Assembly (NCBI GenBank): GCA_048885925.1
Contig: JBHLLG010000004.1
Coordinates: forward strand, 41,617-105,616
Reading direction: 5' to 3'
From: Candidatus Hermodarchaeota archaeon
GTDB taxonomy: Archaea; Asgardarchaeota; Lokiarchaeia; Sigyniarchaeales; SOKP01
Length of the DNA: 64,000 nt
Positions 7,800 through 42,765 of this stretch are shown piece by piece. Under the pieces are notes generated by a model that was given only the letters and a program-made list of their open reading frames with translations, ran no database searches and was not told the DNA's origin. Each line of letters opens with the position of its first letter. Positions within the stretch are counted from its first letter, which is position 1. Made by a program: the position numbers and the translations under genes.

Positions 7800-8170
7800 C
7801 AAAGAGGAATAAAGAAACACAGTCTGCTTTGGTTAGATTACCTATGTCTTCAAAGGAGAAATTGATAGCTTTATCAAGATTTATTCTAACTACAAATCGA
7901 GAAGAAATTATAGATATGACTTTTTCAAATTTTAATCGACTTTTAAGCGACACTTTAGTACATCTTGATGAAGAGATTTAAAAATAAATCTGATATTATT
8001 AATAGTCTATAGATAAAGCTTAATCTGAAAATATGATATAGTAAATATTTTTAAATTTGTTGAGAGGTAAAAATGGTTTTTTAAAAAGGAGAATCTCTCA
8101 ATAGATTGTTAGTATTAGAAATTAATTTAAGAAATTTAATAAATTTAGGAAATTTTTTAAATTTGATTGG

Positions 8171-9323
8171 TGTGGAAACTAATAATAATATTATAGAAAA
8201 AACTGTTGAAAAAAAGTCGAAAAAGTTTACTTTAAGAGAATTTGGTGGTGCATTTGGAGATTGGGGTACTTTAATTCCATTTGTGATTGGTTATATTTCA
8301 ATAGTAGGATTAAGCCCCGCTGGAATATTCTTGACATTAGGTTTAACCAATATCGTAATGGGGATAAAATTTGACCTTCCTCTTCCAGTACAACCGCAAA
8401 AAACAATTGGGACTGTTGCTATATCAAAAAAATGGGATCCAAATATAGTCATCTCAACAGGATTTGGTACTGGAGTAGTATGGTTTATTCTGGGATTTTC
8501 AAAAAAACTCAATCAAATTGTGAGTAAAGTTCCAATTATTGCGGTGAGAGGTATACAACTAGGATTAGCATTGATATTAGGATGGACGGGAATTAAATTA
8601 TTCTCAGATAATCTAATACTTGGGTTTATCTCAATTCTAATAATATTAATTTTAATTAAAAATAAACCTATTCCATCTGCCATTATTCTTACCTTTGGAG
8701 GAATATTATTAATGTTCTTTTCTGGTGTTGTTAATTTTTCAGAATTAGAATTTGGGGTCCCATTGTTAACTTTTCAGATCCCTTTATGGAATAATCTTTT
8801 AATTGGGATGTTATATGCAGGAATTGCGCAAATATTTCTAACTCTGACAAATGTTATGGTTGCAACGGTTGTATTAATTAAAGAACTCTTTCCAGAGAAA
8901 GAGTTTGTTGATGCAAATACTTTAGCTTTTAATATGGGTGCTATGAATTTGATAAATCCCTTTTTAGCGGGAATGCCTTTATGTCATGGATCAGGCGGAT
9001 TAATGGCACAATACGCTTTTGGAGCTAGAACTGGTGGTTCTATGATATTGGAAGGAATAATGGAAATTATTCTAGGATTATTTTTTTCTGAAACGTTACT
9101 TTTACTTTTTATAAAGTTTCCAATGGCAATTTTAGGAGCTATGTTAATTTATACCGCTATTTTATTAGGAAAAATAGCATTTAAGGATTTTAATATAAAA
9201 TCATTCCCTATTGTATTAATCTCTGCTTTAATATGTCATTTCTTAAATATTGCTTTAGGTTTTTTAATTGGACTGATATTGTTCTACATTTTTAAAAACA
9301 AAATTGAATCTCCAAAAAATTGA
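8171..9323 (+). CDS. Putative molybdate/sulfate transporter (MOT1-like)
   Basis: EFGGAFGDWGT, PLPVQPQK, MPLCHGSGGL.AQYAFGARTGG; GTG at 8171 is a more likely start than 8106. Confidence 0.88.
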
Positions 9324-9462: not shown

Positions 9463-10167
9463 ATGGGTGATTTTATGTTATTTTCTGAAAATGAGATAGG
9501 TAATATTAAAAGAGAAATGGGTAAATTAAAGGATAAAGTTATTTTAAAATTGTTTACTGATTTCAAAATCCAAGAGGATGGAAAAAAAGTAAGAAAATGT
9601 ATGGCTTGTGAAGGAGCATATGAGTTATTGAAAACTTTAGAAGATCTATCTGATGGTAAATTAAAAATAGAGGAAATATCCACGGAAGAAAATGAGGAAG
9701 AAGCAAAAAAGTATAATGTAACCAGAATTCCTGCTATATTATTTGTTGATGAAAATGATAAAGAAATAATTCGATACTCCGCTTATCCGACTGGATCAGA
9801 ATTTGTTCCTTTTCTTAACAGCATTCAATACTTCTCAGGTGTTAGACCTTATTATGCAGATCAAATCATTACACATCTAAAAAAGATAGATAATTCGAAA
9901 ATGAAGATTTTTATTACTCCAACTTGCCCGTATTGTCCCGCAACAGTACCAGTTCTTACATTATTTGCGATAATTAGTAAAGGAAAGGTTTCAGCCGAAG
10001 TAATTGATGTTGACTTAAATCCTGATATTGCTATGAAATATCAAGTTCAAGGAGTTCCGCACACAGTTATAAATGAGAAGGATCATATTTATGGAATGTT
10101 TACCCCTCAAGATCTTTTAGATAAACTTACAAAAGGTCAGAGAGATTTTGGAGGGATGTATGCTTAG
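9463..10167 (+). CDS. Protein disulfide oxidoreductase (two thioredoxin folds, AhpF-NTD-like)
   Basis: CMAC and TPTCPYCP motifs, QGVP. Confidence 0.88.
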   Translation: MGDFMLFSENEIGNIKREMGKLKDKVILKLFTDFKIQEDGKKVRKCMACEGAYELLKTLEDLSDGKLKIEEISTEENEEEAKKYNVTRIPAILFVDENDKEIIRYSAYPTGSEFVPFLNSIQYFSGVRPYYADQIITHLKKIDNSKMKIFITPTCPYCPATVPVLTLFAIISKGKVSAEVIDVDLNPDIAMKYQVQGVPHTVINEKDHIYGMFTPQDLLDKLTKGQRDFGGMYA

Positions 10168-10186: not shown

Positions 10187-10870
10187 ATGCTTTCAGATGA
10201 GAAATATAAAGAAATAATTAGAAGAGAGATTGCTAAACTAAAAAAGCCTGTAAGATTAAAAGCTTTCACCTGTAAAAGAAGACCCCCCAATGGAAGTCCA
10301 ATTAGAGAATGCATGGATTGTGGTCAAATTATGTCCTTGTTAAAGATCTATGAGGAAAATTCAAATGGGATGCTTAAAATCGAAGAAATGTGTATAGATG
10401 ACAATCCTGAGTTTTCCAAAATGTATGACATTCAAAGAGTTCCAACAATTCTCTTCATTGATGAGAATGGGAAAGAAATAATCCGTTATTTGGCAGCACC
10501 TCAAGGGGGAGAGATTCAACCTTTTGTTCAAGCCATTTTTGCTTTTGCTGGAGGGAACAATTATTATGAAGCAACAATTAAGCAAAATTTAGATCGAATC
10601 CAACCAAGTACCATTAAGATTATGCTCACAATGTCTTGTCCTTATTGTCCACAAGTTGCATCTATAGCTAATTTATTTGCGATTGCCTCAAGAGGAAAGA
10701 TAAGATCTGTCATTGTAGATATAATGGCTAACCCGGATATTGGTCAATATTATGACGCGGCAGGTGTTCCATATATAATTATTAATGATCAAAAAACTTT
10801 AGTTGGAATGGTTGGACCAAATGAAATATTAAGAGCTCTGATTGGAGGTAATATACGTGTTCAATATTGA
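10187..10870 (+). CDS. Protein disulfide oxidoreductase, paralog 2
   Basis: CMDC and SCPYCP motifs; paralog of upstream gene. Confidence 0.88.
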   Translation: MLSDEKYKEIIRREIAKLKKPVRLKAFTCKRRPPNGSPIRECMDCGQIMSLLKIYEENSNGMLKIEEMCIDDNPEFSKMYDIQRVPTILFIDENGKEIIRYLAAPQGGEIQPFVQAIFAFAGGNNYYEATIKQNLDRIQPSTIKIMLTMSCPYCPQVASIANLFAIASRGKIRSVIVDIMANPDIGQYYDAAGVPYIIINDQKTLVGMVGPNEILRALIGGNIRVQY

Positions 10871-11801
10871 TATGGATAGTATCGATTTAGATAAAATTTA
10901 TGATCTTATCGTTATAGGAGGAGGACCTTCTGCAATTGGCTGTGCAATCTATGCAGCACGATTTGCTATGGAAGTATTAATTGTTGGAAAAATATTTGGA
11001 GGATTAATTGCTACAACTCATATTGTTGAGAATTATCCTGCGATTACATCAATAAGTGGTCAGGGATTAATGGATATGTTTAAAGAGCACATGGATTCTT
11101 TAAATATCCCATATATATCAGATGAAATAAGGAGTATCAACAAAATTGATGATCATTTCGAACTTTATTCTTTCTTTCAAAAATTTAAAGCCTATTCTAT
11201 TTGTATAGCAACAGGTTCAGAGAGGAAAAAACTTGGAATTCCTGGAGAAGAAGAATTTGCGGGACGAGGAGTGTCATATTGTGCAACATGTGACGGTCTT
11301 TTTTACAAAGATAAAATAGTATGTGTAATAGGAGGAAGTGATTCTGCTGCCAAAGAAGCATTATATTTAGCTCAAAACACGAAAAAAGTATATATTATTT
11401 ATAGAGGAGAAGATATTAGAGCTGAACCAATAAATAAAAAACGTGTTCTTGAAAATGAAAAAATAGAGATTATTTACAAAACTAATGTTACTGAAATAAA
11501 GGGGGAAGGGATTGTAAAATCTATAGTTTTTAATAATGGAAAAGAACTCAAGGTTGATGGTGTATTTATTGAGATTGGATCAATTCCTAAATCTGATTTA
11601 GCTAAAAGAATAGGAGTAGTAATAAATGAAAAGGGAGAAATTAAAATCAATCGTAAATCAGAAACAAATGTTAAAGGTATTTTTGCTGCTGGAGATGTTG
11701 CTGATGCACCTTTCAAACAAGCCATAACGGGTGTAGCTGAAGGAGTTATAGCTGCTTATTCTGCTTTTGATTATGTTAAAGAAATGAATATCGAATATTG
11801 A
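10842..11801 (+). CDS. trxB: Thioredoxin reductase
   Basis: IGGGP, GRGVSYCATCDG, VIGGSDSA, FAAGDV; true start may be ATG 10872. Confidence 0.92.
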   Translation: MEVIYVFNIDMDSIDLDKIYDLIVIGGGPSAIGCAIYAARFAMEVLIVGKIFGGLIATTHIVENYPAITSISGQGLMDMFKEHMDSLNIPYISDEIRSINKIDDHFELYSFFQKFKAYSICIATGSERKKLGIPGEEEFAGRGVSYCATCDGLFYKDKIVCVIGGSDSAAKEALYLAQNTKKVYIIYRGEDIRAEPINKKRVLENEKIEIIYKTNVTEIKGEGIVKSIVFNNGKELKVDGVFIEIGSIPKSDLAKRIGVVINEKGEIKINRKSETNVKGIFAAGDVADAPFKQAITGVAEGVIAAYSAFDYVKEMNIEY

Positions 11802-12351: not shown

Positions 12352-13275
12352 TTAATTATGGAGTAAAACTGAGTTTGTAGATAATAGATCAGATAATTTT
12401 TCCCAGTATTCTCTTATTTCCCAATTTTGTCGATCTTTAATTTTTTCAGAGATTTCTTTTAAAATTTCCCTAATTTTAAGAGAATAAAAATAAGTTAAAT
12501 TTGAAGAGATTACAGATAACATATATTGCTTTTCTCCATATCTTTCTTTGTTATCAGGAAAAGAATCAAAGAATAAATATCCTTTATTTTGAATATTTTC
12601 AATATTAAGTAATATACTTTGAGCTTTTGTAATTCGATCATGTCCATAAATTGAAGTGGCAGCATGAAATAATTGCTTACCTATGGTGTTAATTGAATAA
12701 GGGAGATCTTTATCAGGAGGGTAAACTTTTTTTACAATGGGACCTGTAATATCGTCCCAATAGACCAATATTAAACATAAGAGAGGTTGATCTTTTTTAT
12801 TAATAGCTGATGTTATTTTAATATTTAATGATGAAAGTAACTTTTTTATCTCTTTGTCAATAAGATTAGATTTTTTAATTCGTTTTATTTTTCCAGAAAT
12901 TGATGCTAGTAAATCTTCTTTATTAAAGGGTTTAGTTATATAATCATCAACTCCTAACATTTTGCCCCATCGAATATCTTCAGGAGTAGATTTTGCAGTT
13001 AGAAATAAGAATGGAATACGATTCCAATGAGGATTATTAGAAACAACACTAAAAAAATCATAACCATCCATTTCTGCCATCATTATATCACTAATAATTA
13101 GATCGGGATTTCGTTTTAAGTCCGATAAAAGTTTTAAAGCATCTTTGCCATTTACCGCAGTTTTGACTTCATAATTATTATCTTCTAATAAGAGTCTTAA
13201 ATGAAATAGGATATCTTCGTTATCATCAACTACAAGTATTAATGAGTGGGATATATCTTGCATATTGATTTGCAT
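12352..13275 (-). CDS. Response regulator: receiver domain + C-terminal longin/uDENN-like domain
   Basis: VVDDN, ISDIMM, LTAK, YITKPF; C-terminal LVYWDDITGPIVKKVYP. Confidence 0.85.
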   Translation of the reverse strand: MQINMQDISHSLILVVDDNEDILFHLRLLLEDNNYEVKTAVNGKDALKLLSDLKRNPDLIISDIMMAEMDGYDFFSVVSNNPHWNRIPFLFLTAKSTPEDIRWGKMLGVDDYITKPFNKEDLLASISGKIKRIKKSNLIDKEIKKLLSSLNIKITSAINKKDQPLLCLILVYWDDITGPIVKKVYPPDKDLPYSINTIGKQLFHAATSIYGHDRITKAQSILLNIENIQNKGYLFFDSFPDNKERYGEKQYMLSVISSNLTYFYSLKIREILKEISEKIKDRQNWEIREYWEKLSDLLSTNSVLLHN

Positions 13276-13324
13276 AGCACTCTTATAGTGAAACTATCAA
13301 TTAAAATTATATTTAAATTTTACT

Positions 13325-15502
13325 TTATAGATTATCTATTCTTGGAAAAAAAATTGAAAAGGTTGTTTCATTTCCTAAATTGCTTTCAACAAAAATTTCT
13401 CCGTGGTGAAGTTCTATTATATCCTTTGCTATTGATAAACCTAATCCAGTTCCAGAAGTATCTCTAGCATTAGAAGCTCTATAAAATCTTTCAAAAATAT
13501 GAGGGAGTTCTTCTTCACTAATTCCTATACCACGATTTTTAAATTGAAATAAAGTCCCATTTTTTCCTTTAGGATTAAATCTTCCTTTGTAATTTTCAAT
13601 CACATTTATCTTGATAATTGTATTTTCATGTGAATATTTTATCGCATTATCAAGAAGAATTCGAAAAACTTGATCAATCCTTTTAATGTCCCCTTTCATA
13701 TTGATATCTTCATTAATATCAATTTGAAAAGAAATGTTTTTTTCTTGAGCAAAAGGAGAAAAGAATAATTCTATATCTTGTAATAATTTTAAGGGATTAT
13801 AGTTTTCTAAATTAAGCTCTATTTTTTTTTCATCAATTTGAGAGAGCATGAGAATATCTTCTGATAAATCTTTTAGAATTGAAATATTCTTTTCTTCTAT
13901 CTCAATAATGTAGTTTTGTAGTTCAGGGGTTAGTGAATCTTGTTTTTGCTTGAATAAATCTAAGGACATCATTAGAACAGTTATAGGTGTTCTCAATTCA
14001 TGAGAAACTGTCGATACTAAATTCTTAATTCTTCTTTCTGCTAAAATTCTTTCTGTGATATTAAGACCATAAATATTAAGATATTTTTTTTCAGTTATAG
14101 GGGTTATAGTAAACGAGTAAAATTGATTATTTAGTTCAAGCTCAACCTGTTGAATTATTTGAGTATGAAAGACTTCCTCGACTACATTATTTAAACTAAG
14201 AGGTAATTTATTCCCAATCTCAATATTAAACAATTTTTGACCAGCATCATTTATATATAGGACAATATCATTACCAACTCTTAATATTGGATTTGGATTC
14301 TCCGAAGGAAACTTTGCTATACTCTTAATTTCTTCTTCTGCTTTTTTGCGTTCAGTAATATTTCGACCAACTGCAACTATATAATTAATATCTCCTTGAT
14401 CATTCATAATAATTGATCCTAAATATTCAAAGGGTATTTTTTTCCCATCCTTCGTAATTAACTCCATTTGAACCGTAGTATTGCCAGTTTCAATGGCATT
14501 ACGTATAGCCTCTTCAGCTTTTATTAAATCTTCTTGACTGTAATAAGAATCAGGTGCTTTCATAGATAATATCTCCTCATCAGTATACCCACTAATCTCA
14601 TTAAAAGCTTTATTCCAGCTTATCGCTTTACCGTTCTTTGGATTAAATACAAAAAAAGTATCCATTTGAGCATTTAATGCAGTTGCCGTAAATTGCTCAC
14701 TCTGTTTTAATCTTGTGAATAATGTATTTAAGGGATCTTCAAGTCCCTTTTGGACAATTGCTAAATAAATGAGATAGAAAGAGGTTATCTTAAAGAGATG
14801 GCCTATTAAATTAGATAGGTCATATACACCAACATAAAAAGTAAAAGCTAACTCTGCTACTATAGTTGATAAAATAGAAAACATTTTCAGATGAAACGTT
14901 GTTAAATTAAGCCCTTTTCTATTTTTATATAATATTATTATAGATACTGCTAAAATTCCAATAATTATATATTCGCTGATTATCTTAAACTCGGTGAGAC
15001 CAATCCCTTCAATATAACAAACTGGAAAAACCCTAGCGAAAATTAATATCAGCAAAAGTGTAGTAACAACTGTATATCCAATTAACAGATGATTTGGATT
15101 AACTTTTTTATGCATTAAAAGAAATGCCATGAGAAATGATCCTGCTTGAAGATATCTAGCAGCGATCCATAATTGAGTAGGTAAATTTGCGTTATATCCT
15201 TCAATTATATTCATCCCCCTATATGCTAATGTATGGATTAGATCAATTGAGCCTATATATAATAAGCTAACCCCCAGAACTAAAAATATTGAGCTCTCTA
15301 TATTTTTTCGAGTATTCCATCCAATGACAAAAATTCCAAAGGCTATAACTACACTAAATAATTCAGCTATAGTATGAAATAGAAGAAAACTATAGAAGTT
15401 TGTTAGATAAATAAAAAATAATATTAAAGTAAAAACAATTATAGATGATTTACTTTGGTATCGCCTTGGAATTTCTTTTTTTGCTTCTTGCGACACAAAC
15501 AC
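13325..15502 (-). CDS. MASE3-PAS sensor histidine kinase
   Basis: FLLFHTIAELFS / QLWIAARY (MASE3), PAS, VSHELRTP H-box, NAIKYS, GTGLGL. Confidence 0.92.
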   Translation of the reverse strand: MFVSQEAKKEIPRRYQSKSSIIVFTLILFFIYLTNFYSFLLFHTIAELFSVVIAFGIFVIGWNTRKNIESSIFLVLGVSLLYIGSIDLIHTLAYRGMNIIEGYNANLPTQLWIAARYLQAGSFLMAFLLMHKKVNPNHLLIGYTVVTTLLLILIFARVFPVCYIEGIGLTEFKIISEYIIIGILAVSIIILYKNRKGLNLTTFHLKMFSILSTIVAELAFTFYVGVYDLSNLIGHLFKITSFYLIYLAIVQKGLEDPLNTLFTRLKQSEQFTATALNAQMDTFFVFNPKNGKAISWNKAFNEISGYTDEEILSMKAPDSYYSQEDLIKAEEAIRNAIETGNTTVQMELITKDGKKIPFEYLGSIIMNDQGDINYIVAVGRNITERKKAEEEIKSIAKFPSENPNPILRVGNDIVLYINDAGQKLFNIEIGNKLPLSLNNVVEEVFHTQIIQQVELELNNQFYSFTITPITEKKYLNIYGLNITERILAERRIKNLVSTVSHELRTPITVLMMSLDLFKQKQDSLTPELQNYIIEIEEKNISILKDLSEDILMLSQIDEKKIELNLENYNPLKLLQDIELFFSPFAQEKNISFQIDINEDINMKGDIKRIDQVFRILLDNAIKYSHENTIIKINVIENYKGRFNPKGKNGTLFQFKNRGIGISEEELPHIFERFYRASNARDTSGTGLGLSIAKDIIELHHGEIFVESNLGNETTFSIFFPRIDNL

Positions 15503-15614
15503 CTTTTTTGAATCTGAAATTTTATTATTCTTAGATCATATTTAATATTTTTTTCTATAATATTAAAAAATTCTTACATATTAAAAAAAGCTGAAATTAA
15601 TTACTGAAAATGAT

Positions 15615-16163
15615 TCAACTAATTGTAGATTTTTCAAACATAGCGTATATTGTTGTCTTATGAATCGAATAAATAAACTCTGGAGGAATAGTCTCTTTTA
15701 ACTTTTTTATAAAATCGTTAATAACTTTTTCATTAAACTTATCATCATATGCCAAATCAGGGTCAAATTTGTGCAGAAAAATAGAAAAATCGAAGCTACC
15801 AATTTCATTAACTGAATTAATCACCTTTTTCAAATAATCAAGTGCAATATTATAACGCTTGACGTCTTGAATATCAATAACATATATAATTTTATTAGCG
15901 CCCTTTACATATTTACTAAAATTATTAAAATAATCATCAAAGTAGGCCTTCTGACCTCCAAGATCCCAAATTGCATAATTTGAATTTAAAGCTTCAAATT
16001 CTTGTACATTAAGACCTTTTGTAGGCATCGGAGAATTAAAAGCAGATATACGTTTAATACCCTTTAAACAATTTAAAATTGATGTTTTCCCACTATTATC
16101 TAATCCTATTAAAACAATTTTTATAGAACCTTCAGCAAAATCGTTATTTTTTAATCTCTTCAT
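15615..16163 (-). CDS. Small GTPase, Rag/Arf-like
   Basis: G1 GLDNSGKT, G2 PTKG, G3 WDLGGQ, G4 HKFD, G5 TTIY. Confidence 0.9.
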   Translation of the reverse strand: MKRLKNNDFAEGSIKIVLIGLDNSGKTSILNCLKGIKRISAFNSPMPTKGLNVQEFEALNSNYAIWDLGGQKAYFDDYFNNFSKYVKGANKIIYVIDIQDVKRYNIALDYLKKVINSVNEIGSFDFSIFLHKFDPDLAYDDKFNEKVINDFIKKLKETIPPEFIYSIHKTTIYAMFEKSTIS

Positions 16164-16204
16164 CCTTTTTAAAAAAGATTTTCAAACTTTATATTTTCAA
16201 TGAG

Positions 16205-16540
16205 TTAAGTTAAAGTATCAATAACATCGACATCTCTTATATCTTTGAATTTTTCTTTGTAAAGAGTTCCTACTATTGAATTTATGCTCGATAGAAGAGT
16301 AAAAACATCCAAATTCTTTATCTTATAATATTTTACATTATCCTTCTTCTCAAAATCTATAATATTGTTTTCTGAGAGCATATTAAGATGTTTAGAAATA
16401 GTTGATTGAGATCTTCTTAATTCTTTTTGAATTTCTGATGAATTTTTATTATTTTTTCTTAATATGTCTAAAATTTTTAATCTTGTTGGATGGGCTAACA
16501 GCTTCAAAAATTCAATAGTATATTTTCTTAATTCACTCAT
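16205..16540 (-). CDS. ArsR/SmtB family transcriptional regulator
   Basis: LKLLAHPTRLKIL...SQSTISKHL..L. Confidence 0.9.
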   Translation of the reverse strand: MSELRKYTIEFLKLLAHPTRLKILDILRKNNKNSSEIQKELRRSQSTISKHLNMLSENNIIDFEKKDNVKYYKIKNLDVFTLLSSINSIVGTLYKEKFKDIRDVDVIDTLT

Positions 16541-16732: not shown

Positions 16733-17260
16733 ATGATAAGCGAGAAAATAGGAATTGATGATATTGATTGCAAAATTATGGATTTAATTCAGAGAGCGCC
16801 AAATCTTACTCACACAGAAATAGCAGAACATGTGAATCGTAGTCAACCAACTGTAGGTATGAGAATTAAGAAGCTTGAAAAATTAGGTGTTTTAAAATAT
16901 CAAGCGGGTATAAACATAAAAGAAGCAGATCTCTGTTTTGCAAGGATTGAACTTCAAACAAAGAATCCAGATAATGCTATTGAAAAAATAAAGAAATGTC
17001 CTTTTCTTTTAAATGCATTTCGATTATCCGGAGACTCAAATATTAGTATTTTAACTATAGGCTTAAATGTTAAAGATCTTGATAGAATTGTAAATCAAAA
17101 TTTTAGAAATGACCCTGATGTTATTGATGTCCATATTGATGTAATTTCTGATATTGTAAATGATTTTGTCTTGCCAATGGACCTACAGCTTGAATATGGA
17201 GAATTAGTATTACATAAGAATTGCTGTGGTAAATGTAATTGTAAAAGCAGAATTTGTTAA
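16733..17260 (+). CDS. Lrp/AsnC family regulator with Cys-rich tail
   Basis: HTH RSQPTVGMRIKKLE, RAM domain, tail CCGKCNC...C. Confidence 0.9.
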   Translation: MISEKIGIDDIDCKIMDLIQRAPNLTHTEIAEHVNRSQPTVGMRIKKLEKLGVLKYQAGINIKEADLCFARIELQTKNPDNAIEKIKKCPFLLNAFRLSGDSNISILTIGLNVKDLDRIVNQNFRNDPDVIDVHIDVISDIVNDFVLPMDLQLEYGELVLHKNCCGKCNCKSRIC

Positions 17261-17464: not shown

Positions 17465-18562
17465 TTAGAAGAAGTTACATCCATAACATCTCTCATTACT
17501 ATATGCTTCACATCTTAAGCAATTTCTACCACATGGAGTATCTCGATTATCAATGTCAAATAAATTAATCGGGAAAAATTCTGGTTTAGATAAATCAGAT
17601 GCAAATATAATTTCTGTTGAATTAATTTGGTTTTTATCAACTAATAGACAATAATTAATAAAACTATTCAAATCATCAATATTTCTCCCAATTATTCCAA
17701 ATTTTAGATGAAATCGTCCTGTTATTCTTGATATTAGAAACACTCTGGGACATTTTGTAAATATGCTAACGAACTTTTCAATATAGTCATAATTTTTTAA
17801 TTCAATATTAACATAAGCTGCTCTAATACCAAGCGAATTAAAATTAATATTTCCTTGAATTTTCAATGTATTAGATTCTGTTAACTTTTTAATTCGGTTT
17901 TGTATGCCTGTATGACTCATTTCTAAATTTTTTGCCATTAAAGGTTTGCTTTCTCTTCCATCTAAATGTAATTGAAGGAGAATATGTTTATCAATATTAT
18001 CTAATTTTATCACTTTATCTTCCCAATCTCTTTTTTTTTTAAGTTTTTTCAGTTCTTCTAATTGCTTTTTTCCCTCTAATCTGGCATATAAAATAGGAGA
18101 AATATATTCTGCAATTTTCTCTAATCCTTTAACATCTTCTTTTGTATAATTTGATTTCTTATTAGCTACACTAATCATTCCAATAACTCTCTTTTGATAT
18201 AATAAAGGTACTGCTATCGCCCGATTCATAGGAATATGGCCTTCAGGTGGATTCAAAGGTTGATTGGATTGAAATGTTTTTCCCTGTACTATAGATCTAG
18301 CCCAAAGTCCGTTACTATTAGCCCAATCTCCACGAGGAAAAGCAATGTCTTTACTAGGAATTTCGCATCTTTCCCATACTTCCTTAGTAAATGAAGGTAA
18401 AACCAAATCACCATCTTCCTTTATATAACCAAAAATACCATAATCGCTCTCAATTACAGAAAGTATAATGGTTAAAACTTTAGAATAAACTCGATCATCC
18501 TCAAATCTAGTAAATGTTTCAATAATTTTATCTCTGATTTTTATTCCTAATTTTGGACTCAT
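17465..18562 (-). CDS. GAF domain + Lrp/AsnC regulator with Cys-rich tail
   Basis: GAF (PEGHIPM..AIAVPL..VIGMISVANK), HTH, tail CGRNCLRC...CYGC. Confidence 0.88.
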   Translation of the reverse strand: MSPKLGIKIRDKIIETFTRFEDDRVYSKVLTIILSVIESDYGIFGYIKEDGDLVLPSFTKEVWERCEIPSKDIAFPRGDWANSNGLWARSIVQGKTFQSNQPLNPPEGHIPMNRAIAVPLLYQKRVIGMISVANKKSNYTKEDVKGLEKIAEYISPILYARLEGKKQLEELKKLKKKRDWEDKVIKLDNIDKHILLQLHLDGRESKPLMAKNLEMSHTGIQNRIKKLTESNTLKIQGNINFNSLGIRAAYVNIELKNYDYIEKFVSIFTKCPRVFLISRITGRFHLKFGIIGRNIDDLNSFINYCLLVDKNQINSTEIIFASDLSKPEFFPINLFDIDNRDTPCGRNCLRCEAYSNERCYGCNFF

Positions 18563-18864: not shown

Positions 18865-19392
18865 TTGTTGATGATAGCTGAAAAAATGGGCGTAGATGAT
18901 ATCGATTGCAGAATAATCGATTTACTACAGAAAGAACCAAATCTTACACATTATCAAATTGCAGAATATGTAAATCGTAGTCAACCTACGGTAGGAACAC
19001 GAATAAAAAGGCTTGAAAAAATTGGAGTATTAAAATATCAAGCTGGAATAAATTTGAAAGAAGCAGATCTCTGTTTTGCTCGAATTGAGCTTCAATCAAA
19101 AAAGCCAGAAAGAACAATTGAAATCGTGAAAAATTGCCCATTTTTACTGAATGCTATAAGGTTGAGTGGTGATATAAATATTAGTATTATAAGCGTAGGA
19201 TTAAATTATCTAGATATCGACCATATTGTTAATTGCCATTTTCGAAATGACCCAGATGTGGTTAGCGTCCACATCGATATAATCGCTGATGTTCTTCATG
19301 ACCTTGTTTTACCAATAGACTTAAATCTTGAATATGGAGAATTAGATTTACGAAATATGTGTAATGAAAGATGTAGGTACTATTCTTTATAA
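18865..19392 (+). CDS. Lrp/AsnC family regulator (close paralog of 16733-17260)
   Basis: Shared GVLKYQAGIN.KEADLCFARIELQ. Confidence 0.9.
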   Translation: MLMIAEKMGVDDIDCRIIDLLQKEPNLTHYQIAEYVNRSQPTVGTRIKRLEKIGVLKYQAGINLKEADLCFARIELQSKKPERTIEIVKNCPFLLNAIRLSGDINISIISVGLNYLDIDHIVNCHFRNDPDVVSVHIDIIADVLHDLVLPIDLNLEYGELDLRNMCNERCRYYSL

Positions 19393-41529: not shown

Positions 41530-42765
41530 TTGGTGTTTATATTGAAAAATAGGTCAGATTTTTTTAGTAAAGAGCTAACAACGGAAGAGAAAAAATTATA
41601 CGACCGCCAATTTAGGCTTGAAGGATGGTCGCAAAAATTAGTAAAGAATTCTCGCGTTTTAATGATAGGTGTAGGAGGATTAGGGTGCGAAATTGCAAAG
41701 AATCTAGCAATGCTAGGAGTAGGGCATTTAGATTTAGTAGATCTTGATATCATTGAACATTCAAATCTAAATCGCCAAATCTTATTTGCTGGAGCAAAAG
41801 TAGGAGAATCAAAAGCACTTGTTGCAGCAAGAAAATTAACTGAAATTAACCCTAATACTATAATAAAAGGTTATCAAACTTCCCTAGAACGATTAGATCC
41901 AAGAATATATCGCGCTGCAGATGTTGTTATTGGTGGGCTTGATTCCATGAATGCTCGGTTGAATTTAAATGCTCAATGTATAAGATTTAGAAAACCATTA
42001 GTCGATGGAGGTGTATCTGGCTATCATGGTCATGTTTATACAATTTTTCCATTTAAAAATGCATGTTATGAATGCAATCCACTTCCGGTTGGAGAAAGTG
42101 ACGAAATGGCAGCGTGCACAGTAGTAGGCGTTCCTAGAAAGAGAATCCATTGCGTTTTTAAAGGAGACATGGCGTTTAAAGAAAATTTTGATAGAGATCC
42201 TAATCCAAAAAATATCAATGATATCAAATTTATACAAAAAGTTGCTAATGAATTAGTAAATAAACATAATTTTCTTCCGGAGTATACCGAAGATGATATT
42301 GTAAAGATAATTGATCGACATGATCCAGGAATAATTACCATAAATGCTGTCATTTCTGCGTTACAATCACATGAAGTTGTAAAAATCCTTCATTGGAAGA
42401 AAGGTCATACAGGTTTAGGTGAGCCTATTACTGATTATGTTATTTTCAATGCAATGACAATGATGTTTTATCATATTGAGAAAAAAAAAAATCCAGAATG
42501 TTCCCAATGCGGAAAAAATGTCCGGAGATTTTTAGTTAAATTAAGAAAAACTTCCCCTTGTATTAATATAATAAAAACTTTAGAGAAGCGTGGTTTTAAG
42601 CTAGATTCTGATCTAGAACCAGTATTAACATTAGTGGATTTTAATGATGTTAAGATGATAGATTTAGACCAGAATCCAATTGAAAATTGCTTAAGAGATT
42701 ATGAATTTATGACGGCTGCTGGATTTAAGGAAGGAGAAATTTTTGTAACTTTAAAATTGAAATAA
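41530..42765 (+). CDS. E1 ubiquitin-like activating enzyme (UBA3/UBA2-like)
   Basis: YDRQ, GVGGLG, DLD..E.SNLNRQ, CYEC/CSQC Zn site, catalytic AACTVVGVPR...HC, C-terminal extra domain. Confidence 0.9.
   Translation: MVFILKNRSDFFSKELTTEEKKLYDRQFRLEGWSQKLVKNSRVLMIGVGGLGCEIAKNLAMLGVGHLDLVDLDIIEHSNLNRQILFAGAKVGESKALVAARKLTEINPNTIIKGYQTSLERLDPRIYRAADVVIGGLDSMNARLNLNAQCIRFRKPLVDGGVSGYHGHVYTIFPFKNACYECNPLPVGESDEMAACTVVGVPRKRIHCVFKGDMAFKENFDRDPNPKNINDIKFIQKVANELVNKHNFLPEYTEDDIVKIIDRHDPGIITINAVISALQSHEVVKILHWKKGHTGLGEPITDYVIFNAMTMMFYHIEKKKNPECSQCGKNVRRFLVKLRKTSPCINIIKTLEKRGFKLDSDLEPVLTLVDFNDVKMIDLDQNPIENCLRDYEFMTAAGFKEGEIFVTLKLK

Follow-up and report, generated by a model that had tools for sequence, protein, structure and literature searches.

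Does the response regulator of a two-component system in an Asgard archaeon act on the eukaryote-like small GTPase encoded beside it? The question is raised by a cluster of minus-strand genes in a stretch of contig JBHLLG010000004.1 of a Candidatus Hermodarchaeota archaeon (positions 41,617 to 105,616 of the forward strand; 64,000 nucleotides (nt) with a G+C content of ca. 28%, referred to as the window throughout), in which an ArsR-type regulator, a small GTPase, a membrane histidine kinase and a response regulator with a longin output domain are encoded one after another. Contact between the longin domain and the adjacent GTPase is supported by gene linkage and by a controlled complex prediction, and we regard binding of this GTPase by the longin domain as quite likely. 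For the cassette as a whole, the reading that we favour, with some reserve, is that the receiver-longin protein is a phosphorylation-controlled regulator, probably a GTPase-activating protein (GAP), of the neighbouring GTPase. Both this type of protein and the idea behind it have been published before; what is added here is a GTPase matched to the regulator and a cassette that is conserved. The cassette bears on whether longin GAP chemistry predates eukaryotes, and on its wiring to prokaryotic signalling.

The original prediction, made from the sequence alone, had placed the ArsR-type, GTPase, MASE3-PAS kinase and response regulator genes on the minus strand, where all four were found. With the HSP20 gene that follows them and the mapped parts of the response regulator, the features are:

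16205..16540, minus strand: ArsR/SmtB-type winged-helix regulator, 111 amino acids (aa); Pfam HTH_5 3.1e-12, NCBIfam HTH_metalloreg 66.3 bits against a cut-off of 55
15615..16163, minus strand: small GTPase, 182 aa; Pfam Arf 76.4 bits, Gtr1_RagA 56.9 bits
13325..15502, minus strand: MASE3-PAS-HisKA-HATPase_c membrane sensor histidine kinase, 725 aa; Pfam and NCBIfam
12352..13275, minus strand: response regulator, 307 aa, with receiver, long alpha-5 helix and longin; Pfam Response_reg and AlphaFold2 (AF2)
12898..13239, minus strand: receiver domain of the regulator, residues 13-126; Pfam Response_reg (PF00072) 89.3 bits against a cut-off of 30.2
12361..12780, minus strand: longin domain of the regulator, residues 166-305; AF2, Foldseek and VIA-align
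12739..12759, minus strand: W173-D-D-I-T-G178-P179 motif in the beta1-beta2 loop of the longin domain (W24...P30 in domain numbering)
12541..12543, minus strand: R245 (domain R96), candidate arginine finger in the beta4-beta5 loop
11854..12177, minus strand: HSP20 small heat-shock protein; Pfam HSP20 3.3e-10

The ArsR-type gene is the first of the cluster, and the spacers between the five minus-strand genes are, in order, 41, 112, 49 and 174 nt. Adding 149 to the domain numbering gives the numbering of the full protein.

Domains and motifs of the regulator and the GTPase

By profile and by residues, the N-terminal part of the regulator is classified as a CheY-like receiver (PF00072). The acidic pocket, the phospho-acceptor Asp (at the position of D63), the Thr/Ser and the Lys are the catalytic positions of such receivers; D17, D18, D63, T93 and K115 are all present, with D18, D63 and K115 near-invariant in alignment A4. 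The kinase encoded directly upstream combines MASE3 (residues 35-257, 8.8e-83), PAS (275-386; PAS_9 7.4e-14), HisKA (493-558, 1.4e-10) and HATPase_c (604-721, 7.4e-26) domains by Pfam, and its catalytic residues are intact, including the H-box SHELRTP at ca. 501.

The remainder of the regulator, residues ca. 140-307, gave no family match in Pfam or NCBIfam. An AF2 model of the domain, based on a 102-sequence alignment, reached a predicted local distance difference test score (pLDDT) of 90 and a predicted template modelling score (pTM) of 0.84, and its elements follow the order beta-beta-alpha-beta-beta-beta-alpha-alpha (DSSP), which we take to be the longin topology. In the full-length model (pLDDT 90.4, pTM 0.87), the receiver alpha-5 extends as a 31-residue helix (residues 119-149), which leads through a short linker into the longin domain. 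Foldseek returned seven PDB matches with E-values ≤0.001 (top matches 1e-4 to 5e-4), all of them longins; six are chains from entries of GATOR1/SEA or FLCN complexes, and the seventh is the Lokiarchaeota Roadblock-Longin protein 8yqg. An independent search with VIA-align, in which the matches are known by entry title and the chain subunit is unspecified, aligned the domain to solved longins with Z 8.6-13.1 over 109-140 residues. Its top ranks were 6nzd_H (FLCN-FNIP2-Rag-Ragulator entry, Z 13.1), 8yqg_B (Z 12.4) and the Lst4 longin (Z 12.1), then 7o2w_A (C9orf72-SMCR8 entry, Z 11.8), 6ulg_N (Z 10.6) and 6lt0_B (Z 10.3), then DENND1A and a GATOR1 chain (both Z 10.2), with generic longins (TRAPP, VAMP7, Sec22, sedlin; Z 8-9.7) and roadblocks (ca. 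Z 8) below them. Sequence search gave the identity of two further chains, 6lt0_C as C9orf72 and 6nzd_G as RagC.

The domain is thus confidently modelled as a longin, and its place in the GAP class of longins is close to certain. The output domain had originally been described as uDENN/longin; the longin part of this description stood up to AF2, Foldseek and VIA-align, with chains of GAP-type longin complex entries as the best structural matches, while the name uDENN proved to fit merely as the longin part of a DENN module. The complete module (uDENN-DENN-dDENN) was rejected, only its longin (uDENN-like) part being present. The regulator ends at residue 307, two residues past the last longin helix, and carries neither a DENN nor an NPRL2-specific C-terminal domain; a second longin gene is also absent from the cassette. 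For these two reasons the protein is a member of the longin class of FLCN, NPRL2, SMCR8 and C9orf72 and stands outside these families proper.

At the sequence level, the mixed profile A1, which includes the receiver, retrieved nothing but receivers from the PDB. The sole match of the receiver-free profile A2 among 177,635 distinct PDB sequences was human C9orf72 (residues 29-158) with an E-value of 1.3, which is insignificant alone and agrees with the fold result; the alignment pairs the WD and GP positions of the two proteins. The C9orf72 string AYWDNILGPRV, given in the original prediction, was borne out, as C9orf72 in the PDB reads YWDNILGPRV opposite the family consensus WDDvlGP (HMMER). 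Homologues of the domain itself were plentiful: a HMMER search with residues 150-307 gave 151 cluster representatives at E ≤0.001, most of them ca. 295-300 aa long and carrying the domain C-terminally, and a word-indexed search gave 128 proteins, with domain identities of 53-96% and lengths mostly of ca. 303 aa among the 120 matches listed. The few homologues with a named source were from Loki/Promethearchaeota, Thor, Hod and Odin archaea.

Residues 168-186 of the regulator read ...LILVYWDDITGPIVKKVYP... and contain the W-D-x-x-x-G-P motif. This motif is evidently not due to chance, since W, G and P are conserved in 97%, 94% and 93% of the 102 aligned domains, respectively, and W24, G29 and P30 recur in 56 of 56 genomic copies from the loci examined, many of them close kin (the count excludes the copy in the window and a weak match of 54 bits). 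In the same alignment W24, G29, P30, P37 and F87 are conserved to at least 90%, and D25, D26, Q52-L53-F54, Y61-G62, D88 and M103 to 65-87%. In C9orf72, the residues W33-D34 and G38-P39, which have a spacing identical to that of the regulator, are described as essential or highly conserved in the accessible text of a recent study (Traffic 2025, PMC12290439). According to the same text, the GP motif is found specifically in GAP longins, and longins that are not GAPs, such as DENND proteins and TRAPP subunits, lack it; some Asgard longins carry both the GP motif and an arginine finger, and the identity of their partner GTPases is posed there as a question. In the regulator the pair G178-P179 is located at the end of the beta1-beta2 loop, as in GAP-type longins. 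The candidate arginine finger, R245, has an arginine at its column (96) in 76 of 102 aligned family members and in 54 of the 56 genomic copies; at locus L006 the residue is K, and a PAS-longin protein of locus L086 has a shorter loop that holds no arginine.

The GTPase carries the motifs G1 GLDNSGKT (at residue 20), switch I PTKG (47) with T48, G3 DLGGQ with Q71, G4 HKFD (131) and G5 KTTIY (169), and its last residue is 182. As the protein ends right after G5, it has no room for a C-terminal roadblock domain; it also has neither Gly2 nor a C-terminal lipidation Cys, and its N-terminus reads MKRLKNND. The Pfam Arf match is the higher one and covers residues 10-141 only, and the Gtr1_RagA match (cut-off 22 bits) covers residues 15-173. 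Human RagC/D align with the GTPase through G4/G5 up to residue 177, and Arfs stop at ca. 134. A G4 of the form HKxD is typical of Rag, and the G1 GLDNSGKT and G3 WDLGGQ are presumably Arf-like. The closest solved chains found with a 53-sequence profile were the Asgard 'GTP-binding protein' entries 8yl2 (123.8 bits) and 8zla (96.2 bits), the latter identical in sequence to 9m28, titled 'monomeric Rag-like small GTPase from Asgard Lokiarchaeota (LokiRagM)'. Judged by its motifs, the GTPase appears Rag-like in the C-terminal half and Arf-like in G1/G3, and is best named Rag-like/Arf-like. The Rag-like GTPase of the original prediction is accordingly retained as to HKFD, TTIY and the missing roadblock, and qualified as to family by the higher Arf score. 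Two stricter assignments were rejected: Rag proper, because the roadblock domain for dimerisation is lacking despite the Gtr1_RagA match and the HKxD motif, and Arf proper, because the Arf match is confined to residues 10-141, Gly2 is missing and G4 is HKFD instead of NKxD.

Orthologues of the GTPase, among 120 matches listed, are mostly 182 aa long and 56-78% identical, and the type is single-copy in its own genome, where it scores 418 bits and the next open reading frame (ORF) 104. As a separate observation, some paralogues (E-values ca. 1e-49 to 1e-53) contain one in-frame stop codon, TGA in G178:C377, G177:C37 and G190:C69, and TAA in G224:C188 and G133:C53; these may be pseudogenes or recoded genes.

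Predicted complex and conserved gene linkage

The complex was predicted from two copies of the longin domain (alignment A1), one GTPase (alignment A3), GTP and Mg, together with three controls. The interface score ipSAE (interaction prediction score from aligned errors) was 0.57, 0.78 and 0.81 (median 0.78), against 0.00-0.02 in the controls (best control 0.02); a complex prediction with the GTPase had been suggested as a check in the original prediction. In calibration, 58 of 80 solved complexes and 2 of 110 mismatched pairs attained the mark passed here. Contacts agreed between runs to at least 79%, and partner pLDDT was at least 78. The modelled interface comprises residues 24-31, 51, 54-55, 57-58, 63-65 and 96-97 of the first longin copy, residues 26-30, 47, 51, 55 and 63 of the second, and GTPase residues 12-15, 22-23 (P-loop), 44-55 (switch I), 64-66, 71-74 (switch II, with Q71) and 77-88. 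Highest in confidence are the contacts of longin G29, D25 and T27 with GTPase Q71 and D22, and D22-N23 are touched by the motif as well. The conserved longin motifs are thereby predicted to be turned towards the nucleotide pocket, an arrangement known from the solved complexes FLCN:RagC, GATOR1:RagA and C9orf72-SMCR8:ARF1. R245, a putative counterpart of FLCN R164, NPRL2 R78 and SMCR8 R147, shares the predicted interface with the GP loop.

Gene order was compared at two distances. In all five close loci with enough flank (L001-L005), the order ArsR, GTPase, histidine kinase, response regulator and HSP20 is kept together with an adjoining oxidoreductase gene; locus L006, cut by a contig end, is outside this count. 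An ArsR-type gene holds the first position at L095, L098 and L100 as well as in these five. A census of 399 genomes of the phylum (E ≤1e-5 for the longin, ≤1e-30 for the GTPase type) located the longin domain in 166 genomes, among them 122 of 133 in the archaeon's own family (f1) and 22 of 22 in family f16. The GTPase type occurred in 168 of the 399 (130 of 133 in f1, 14 of 14 in family f3, none of 22 in f16). Among 150 longin matches listed, at least 76, from 75 genomes, share a contig with the 182-aa GTPase type; as pairing was made by contig among 150 matches per search, with 218 and 424 further matches outside, this is a lower bound. The gap between the two genes in the 76 pairs is at most 3.7 kb, with a median of 2.9 kb that corresponds to about the size of the kinase gene; the strand is shared in 71 pairs, and the GTPase gene is located upstream in 72. 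Four genomes (G148, G167, G168 and G169) have the longin and GTPase genes side by side, 34-170 nt apart. The synteny sought by the original prediction is present in the close loci and in at least 75 genomes, mostly of family f1.

Among 20 loci fetched to span families, a selection that was not random, the kinase gene directly adjoins the receiver-longin gene in 14, and a GTPase-like ORF is near the longin gene in 12 (within 5 kb in 11, at 7.4 kb in one). Of these 20 loci, 16 (paralogous or more distant copies) are without the 182-aa type, and another GTPase-like ORF was found within 5 kb in seven of the 16; 12 GTPase-like ORFs scanned by Pfam at such loci were of Gtr1/RagA type (185-469 aa), Arf type or Ras type. 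As background, 20 ORFs match the GTPase model in the 3.9 Mb of the archaeon's own genome, and first-look candidate counts in other Asgard genomes were 50-100. Enrichment of GTPases beside receiver-longin genes is real, its size being known roughly.

The longin family is also fused to PAS sensors in genome G128, as PAS-PAS-longin (565 aa, L082:9322-11016) and PAS-longin (342 aa, L086:9068-10093), from which it appears to behave as a signalling output domain of sensory modules. Receiver-longin genes were also observed as tandem pairs flanked by histidine kinases (L091:8746-10620 in G060, and G069:C430:1630-3027), with no GTPase in the fetched flank.

Proposed mechanism and competing explanations

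In the mechanism that we propose, the membrane kinase would sense a signal and phosphorylate D63 of the receiver, as suggested by the intact motifs and the adjacency of the genes. By analogy with other response regulators, phosphorylation may then shift the dimer state or geometry of the regulator via its alpha4-beta5-alpha5 face and the alpha-5 helix of 31 residues, which would set the pairing of the two longin domains. The longin dimer would dock with its two W-D-x-x-x-G-P loops on the P-loop, switch I and switch II (with Q71) of the GTPase. If R245 then acted as an arginine finger, the regulator would be a GAP that switches the GTPase off. We infer this last step because the GP motif is specific to GAP longins in the literature, the arginine is conserved and the GTPase has its catalytic Gln; the choice of a GAP over a guanine nucleotide exchange factor (GEF), platform or effector is nevertheless an even call. 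Candidates downstream of the GTPase are the co-located ArsR-type regulator and HSP20. The phosphorelay-controlled GTPase switch of the original prediction is supported as a whole, and we infer its parts, i.e. binding, GAP or GEF activity and phospho-control.

Several observations weigh against the proposed mechanism. The complex score may derive from the prediction model's memory of the solved FLCN:RagC, GATOR1:RagA and C9orf72-SMCR8:ARF1 complexes, and would then report likeness and not binding; such likeness may have been learned because longin-GTPase complexes of this kind are solved. The prediction also used its own alignments and ligands, which differ from the calibration set-up of the score. 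The linked genomes are mostly of family f1 and are kin, so the 76 pairs are not independent, and no GTPase is nearby in 8 of the 20 examined loci (two of the eight cut by contig ends). A second receiver-longin gene in the archaeon's own genome (C3:86541-87431, 144 bits with the longin model) has no kinase or GTPase model match within 8 kb. T-runs of 7 and 6 in the 112-nt spacer between the GTPase and kinase genes could be archaeal terminators, so that co-transcription is putative; intergenic T-runs and TATA-like words were simply inspected and are uninformative at 28% G+C, and no RNA run containing this DNA was found among the listed sequencing runs, the three metatranscriptome runs being nearly devoid of its sequence words. 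As to the arginine, R96 is conserved in just 75% of the wider family, and the WD motif is that of the C9orf72 subunit, which gives no arginine in the eukaryotic complex according to the accessible text of PMC12290439. Longins are, moreover, commoner as GEFs or platforms than as GAPs, as far as the available parts of two sources go (PMC10933270, PMC13408092).

The last point leads to the explanation that competes most closely, namely that the receiver-longin protein binds the adjacent GTPase as a GEF, as an effector or as a platform specific for one nucleotide state, in the manner of Mon1-Ccz1, TRAPP, MglB-type platforms or RomR-RomX. Gene linkage and the predicted complex fit such a role equally well, the Rab GEF DENND1A is among the structural matches (Z 10.2), and RomRX has been re-interpreted as an effector of MglA-GTP (PMC13408092, accessible part). 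We consider it unlikely all the same, as longins that are not GAPs, DENND proteins and TRAPP subunits among them, are reported to lack the GP motif (PMC12290439, accessible text), and as a conserved arginine is placed beside the catalytic Gln in the predicted interface.

Less probable still is that the GTPase works upstream of the two-component system or directly on it, for instance by gating the kinase or the phosphotransfer, or is merely co-regulated with it, and that the longin acts elsewhere, on other GTPases or on a membrane or SNARE-like partner. The GTPase gene does precede the kinase gene in 72 of the 76 pairs, the paralogous receiver-longin gene noted above has no GTPase match nearby, Asgard genomes are rich in GTPases (78 first-look candidates in genome G000), and the GTPase genes of MK-D1 as a rule do not share operons with genes for longin or roadblock proteins (Tran et al., accessible text). 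However, the predicted interface consists of the conserved family motifs and the GTPase switches, with controls at 0.00-0.02, and paralogous loci repeat the GTPase adjacency with different GTPase types.

That the linkage is a gene order inherited within one archaeal family, the complex a fold-likeness artefact and the genes functionally unrelated would account for the predominance of family f1 and for a score drawn from model memory, but is very improbable given that the order is kept over at least nine f1 genera despite protein divergence to 53-60% identity, that directly adjacent variants (gaps of 34-170 nt) occur in G148, G167, G168 and G169, and that other families pair the longin domain with other GTPases.

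The proposed phosphorylation-controlled regulation of the GTPase by the receiver-longin protein can be extended, tentatively and with considerable doubt, to a minimal archaeal counterpart of GATOR1/FLCN-Rag, in which a His-Asp-switched homodimeric GP-longin GAP with an arginine finger would act on a monomeric, roadblock-less Rag-like GTPase controlling the co-encoded ArsR-type regulator and stress genes. If this were true, the pairing of a longin GAP with a Rag-type GTPase would have been present in Asgard archaea with prokaryotic input, before the lysosome or the TOR kinase. The 182-aa GTPase, the 307-aa receiver-longin protein and the cytoplasmic part of the kinase form a matched, tractable set, with acetyl phosphate or BeF3- as a handle for switching it and D63, G178/P179 and R245 as sites for point mutants.

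Known systems and genomic surroundings

Fusions of 'NPRL2-like longin' domains to two-component signalling domains have been described in Asgard archaea by Liu et al. (bioRxiv 10.1101/2020.10.19.343400, accessible text), who proposed that Asgard growth regulation centres on two-component systems with 'eukaryotic' regulators; most genes for eukaryotic signature proteins were located outside conserved neighbourhoods. The original prediction had mentioned such DENN/longin fusions to signalling domains in Asgard genomes, and this preprint bears it out. The present regulator belongs to the same architecture class, a two-component domain with a longin of the NPRL2/FLCN kind. The preprint's accessible text describes domain fusions alone and names neither a partner GTPase nor a cassette, whereas the present regulator is linked to a 182-aa GTPase and to a kinase, with a predicted complex. 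In a literature search that did not extend to the figures and supplements of Liu et al., we found no published description of an ArsR-GTPase-kinase-receiver-longin cassette, of a roadblock-less Rag-like GTPase partner or of an activity test.

The Asgard GP-motif longins of the Traffic 2025 study (PMC12290439) have the same arrangement of GP motif and arginine; its accessible text names no receiver fusion, operon or partner, for which a concrete candidate is available here. Asgard GTPases are generally not found in operons with longin or roadblock genes, so that regulators are left unmatched from gene layout (Tran et al. 2024, accessible text). The cassette addresses both gaps, i.e. the matching of a regulator to a GTPase and the partners of GP-motif longins, as far as these are set out in the accessible parts of the two sources.

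With the eukaryotic longin GAP complexes FLCN-FNIP2 (acting on RagC/D), GATOR1 NPRL2-NPRL3 (RagA/B) and C9orf72-SMCR8-WDR41 (ARF/RAB), the regulator has in common the longin fold, the GP motif, a WD of the C9orf72 type and a nearby arginine, and also, as predicted here, the orientation of a longin dimer towards the nucleotide pocket in a GTPase of the Arf/Rag class, the target having Rag-like G4/G5. It differs by the lack of a DENN or C-terminal domain, by a presumed homodimer in place of a heterodimer, by an input of His-Asp phosphorylation, as we read it, instead of nutrient sensors, and by a GTPase without roadblock, through which no Rag-type dimer can form; sequence identity is 9-16%. The closest solved archaeal relatives are the Lokiarchaeota Roadblock-Longin protein 8yqg on the longin side and 8yl2 and LokiRagM (9m28) on the GTPase side; their roadblock/longin domains are fused differently and the proteins are longer, the GTPases having 342-385 aa. 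In Myxococcus, the MglA-MglB pair with RomR-RomX likewise joins a small GTPase, a dimer of the roadblock/longin superfamily and a receiver-domain protein in one circuit, which for the present cassette is predicted. There, according to the available parts of the sources, receiver and roadblock are separate proteins, MglB is a roadblock and not a GP-motif longin, and MglA belongs to another GTPase family.

Named homologues of the window proteins came from Promethearchaeota/Lokiarchaeota and other Asgard metagenome-assembled genomes. Around the cassette, the HSP20 gene is located on the same strand downstream of the response regulator gene and takes the same place in L001-L005; as a conserved neighbour, it may belong to the unit. 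On the plus strand, two paralogous proteins of ca. 230 aa with thioredoxin-fold matches (9463-10167 and 10187-10870) are followed by a pyridine nucleotide-disulphide oxidoreductase (10842-11801), which adjoins the cassette in L001-L005 as well, with 82-87% identity. Its retention beside the cassette hints at a redox or stress context, and a stress or redox response as the output of the GTPase is a guess made from the nearby ArsR-type regulator, HSP20 and redox genes.

On the other side of the cassette, three Lrp/AsnC-type regulators are encoded at 16733-17260 (plus strand), 17465-18562 (minus) and 18865-19392 (plus), of which one has a fused GAF domain and each ends in a Cys-rich tail; Lrp-type genes adjoin the ArsR gene also in L001-L005, L095, L098 and L100. 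Further away, a membrane protein of the MFS_MOT1 molybdate-transporter family (142.9 bits) is encoded at 8106-9323 on the plus strand.

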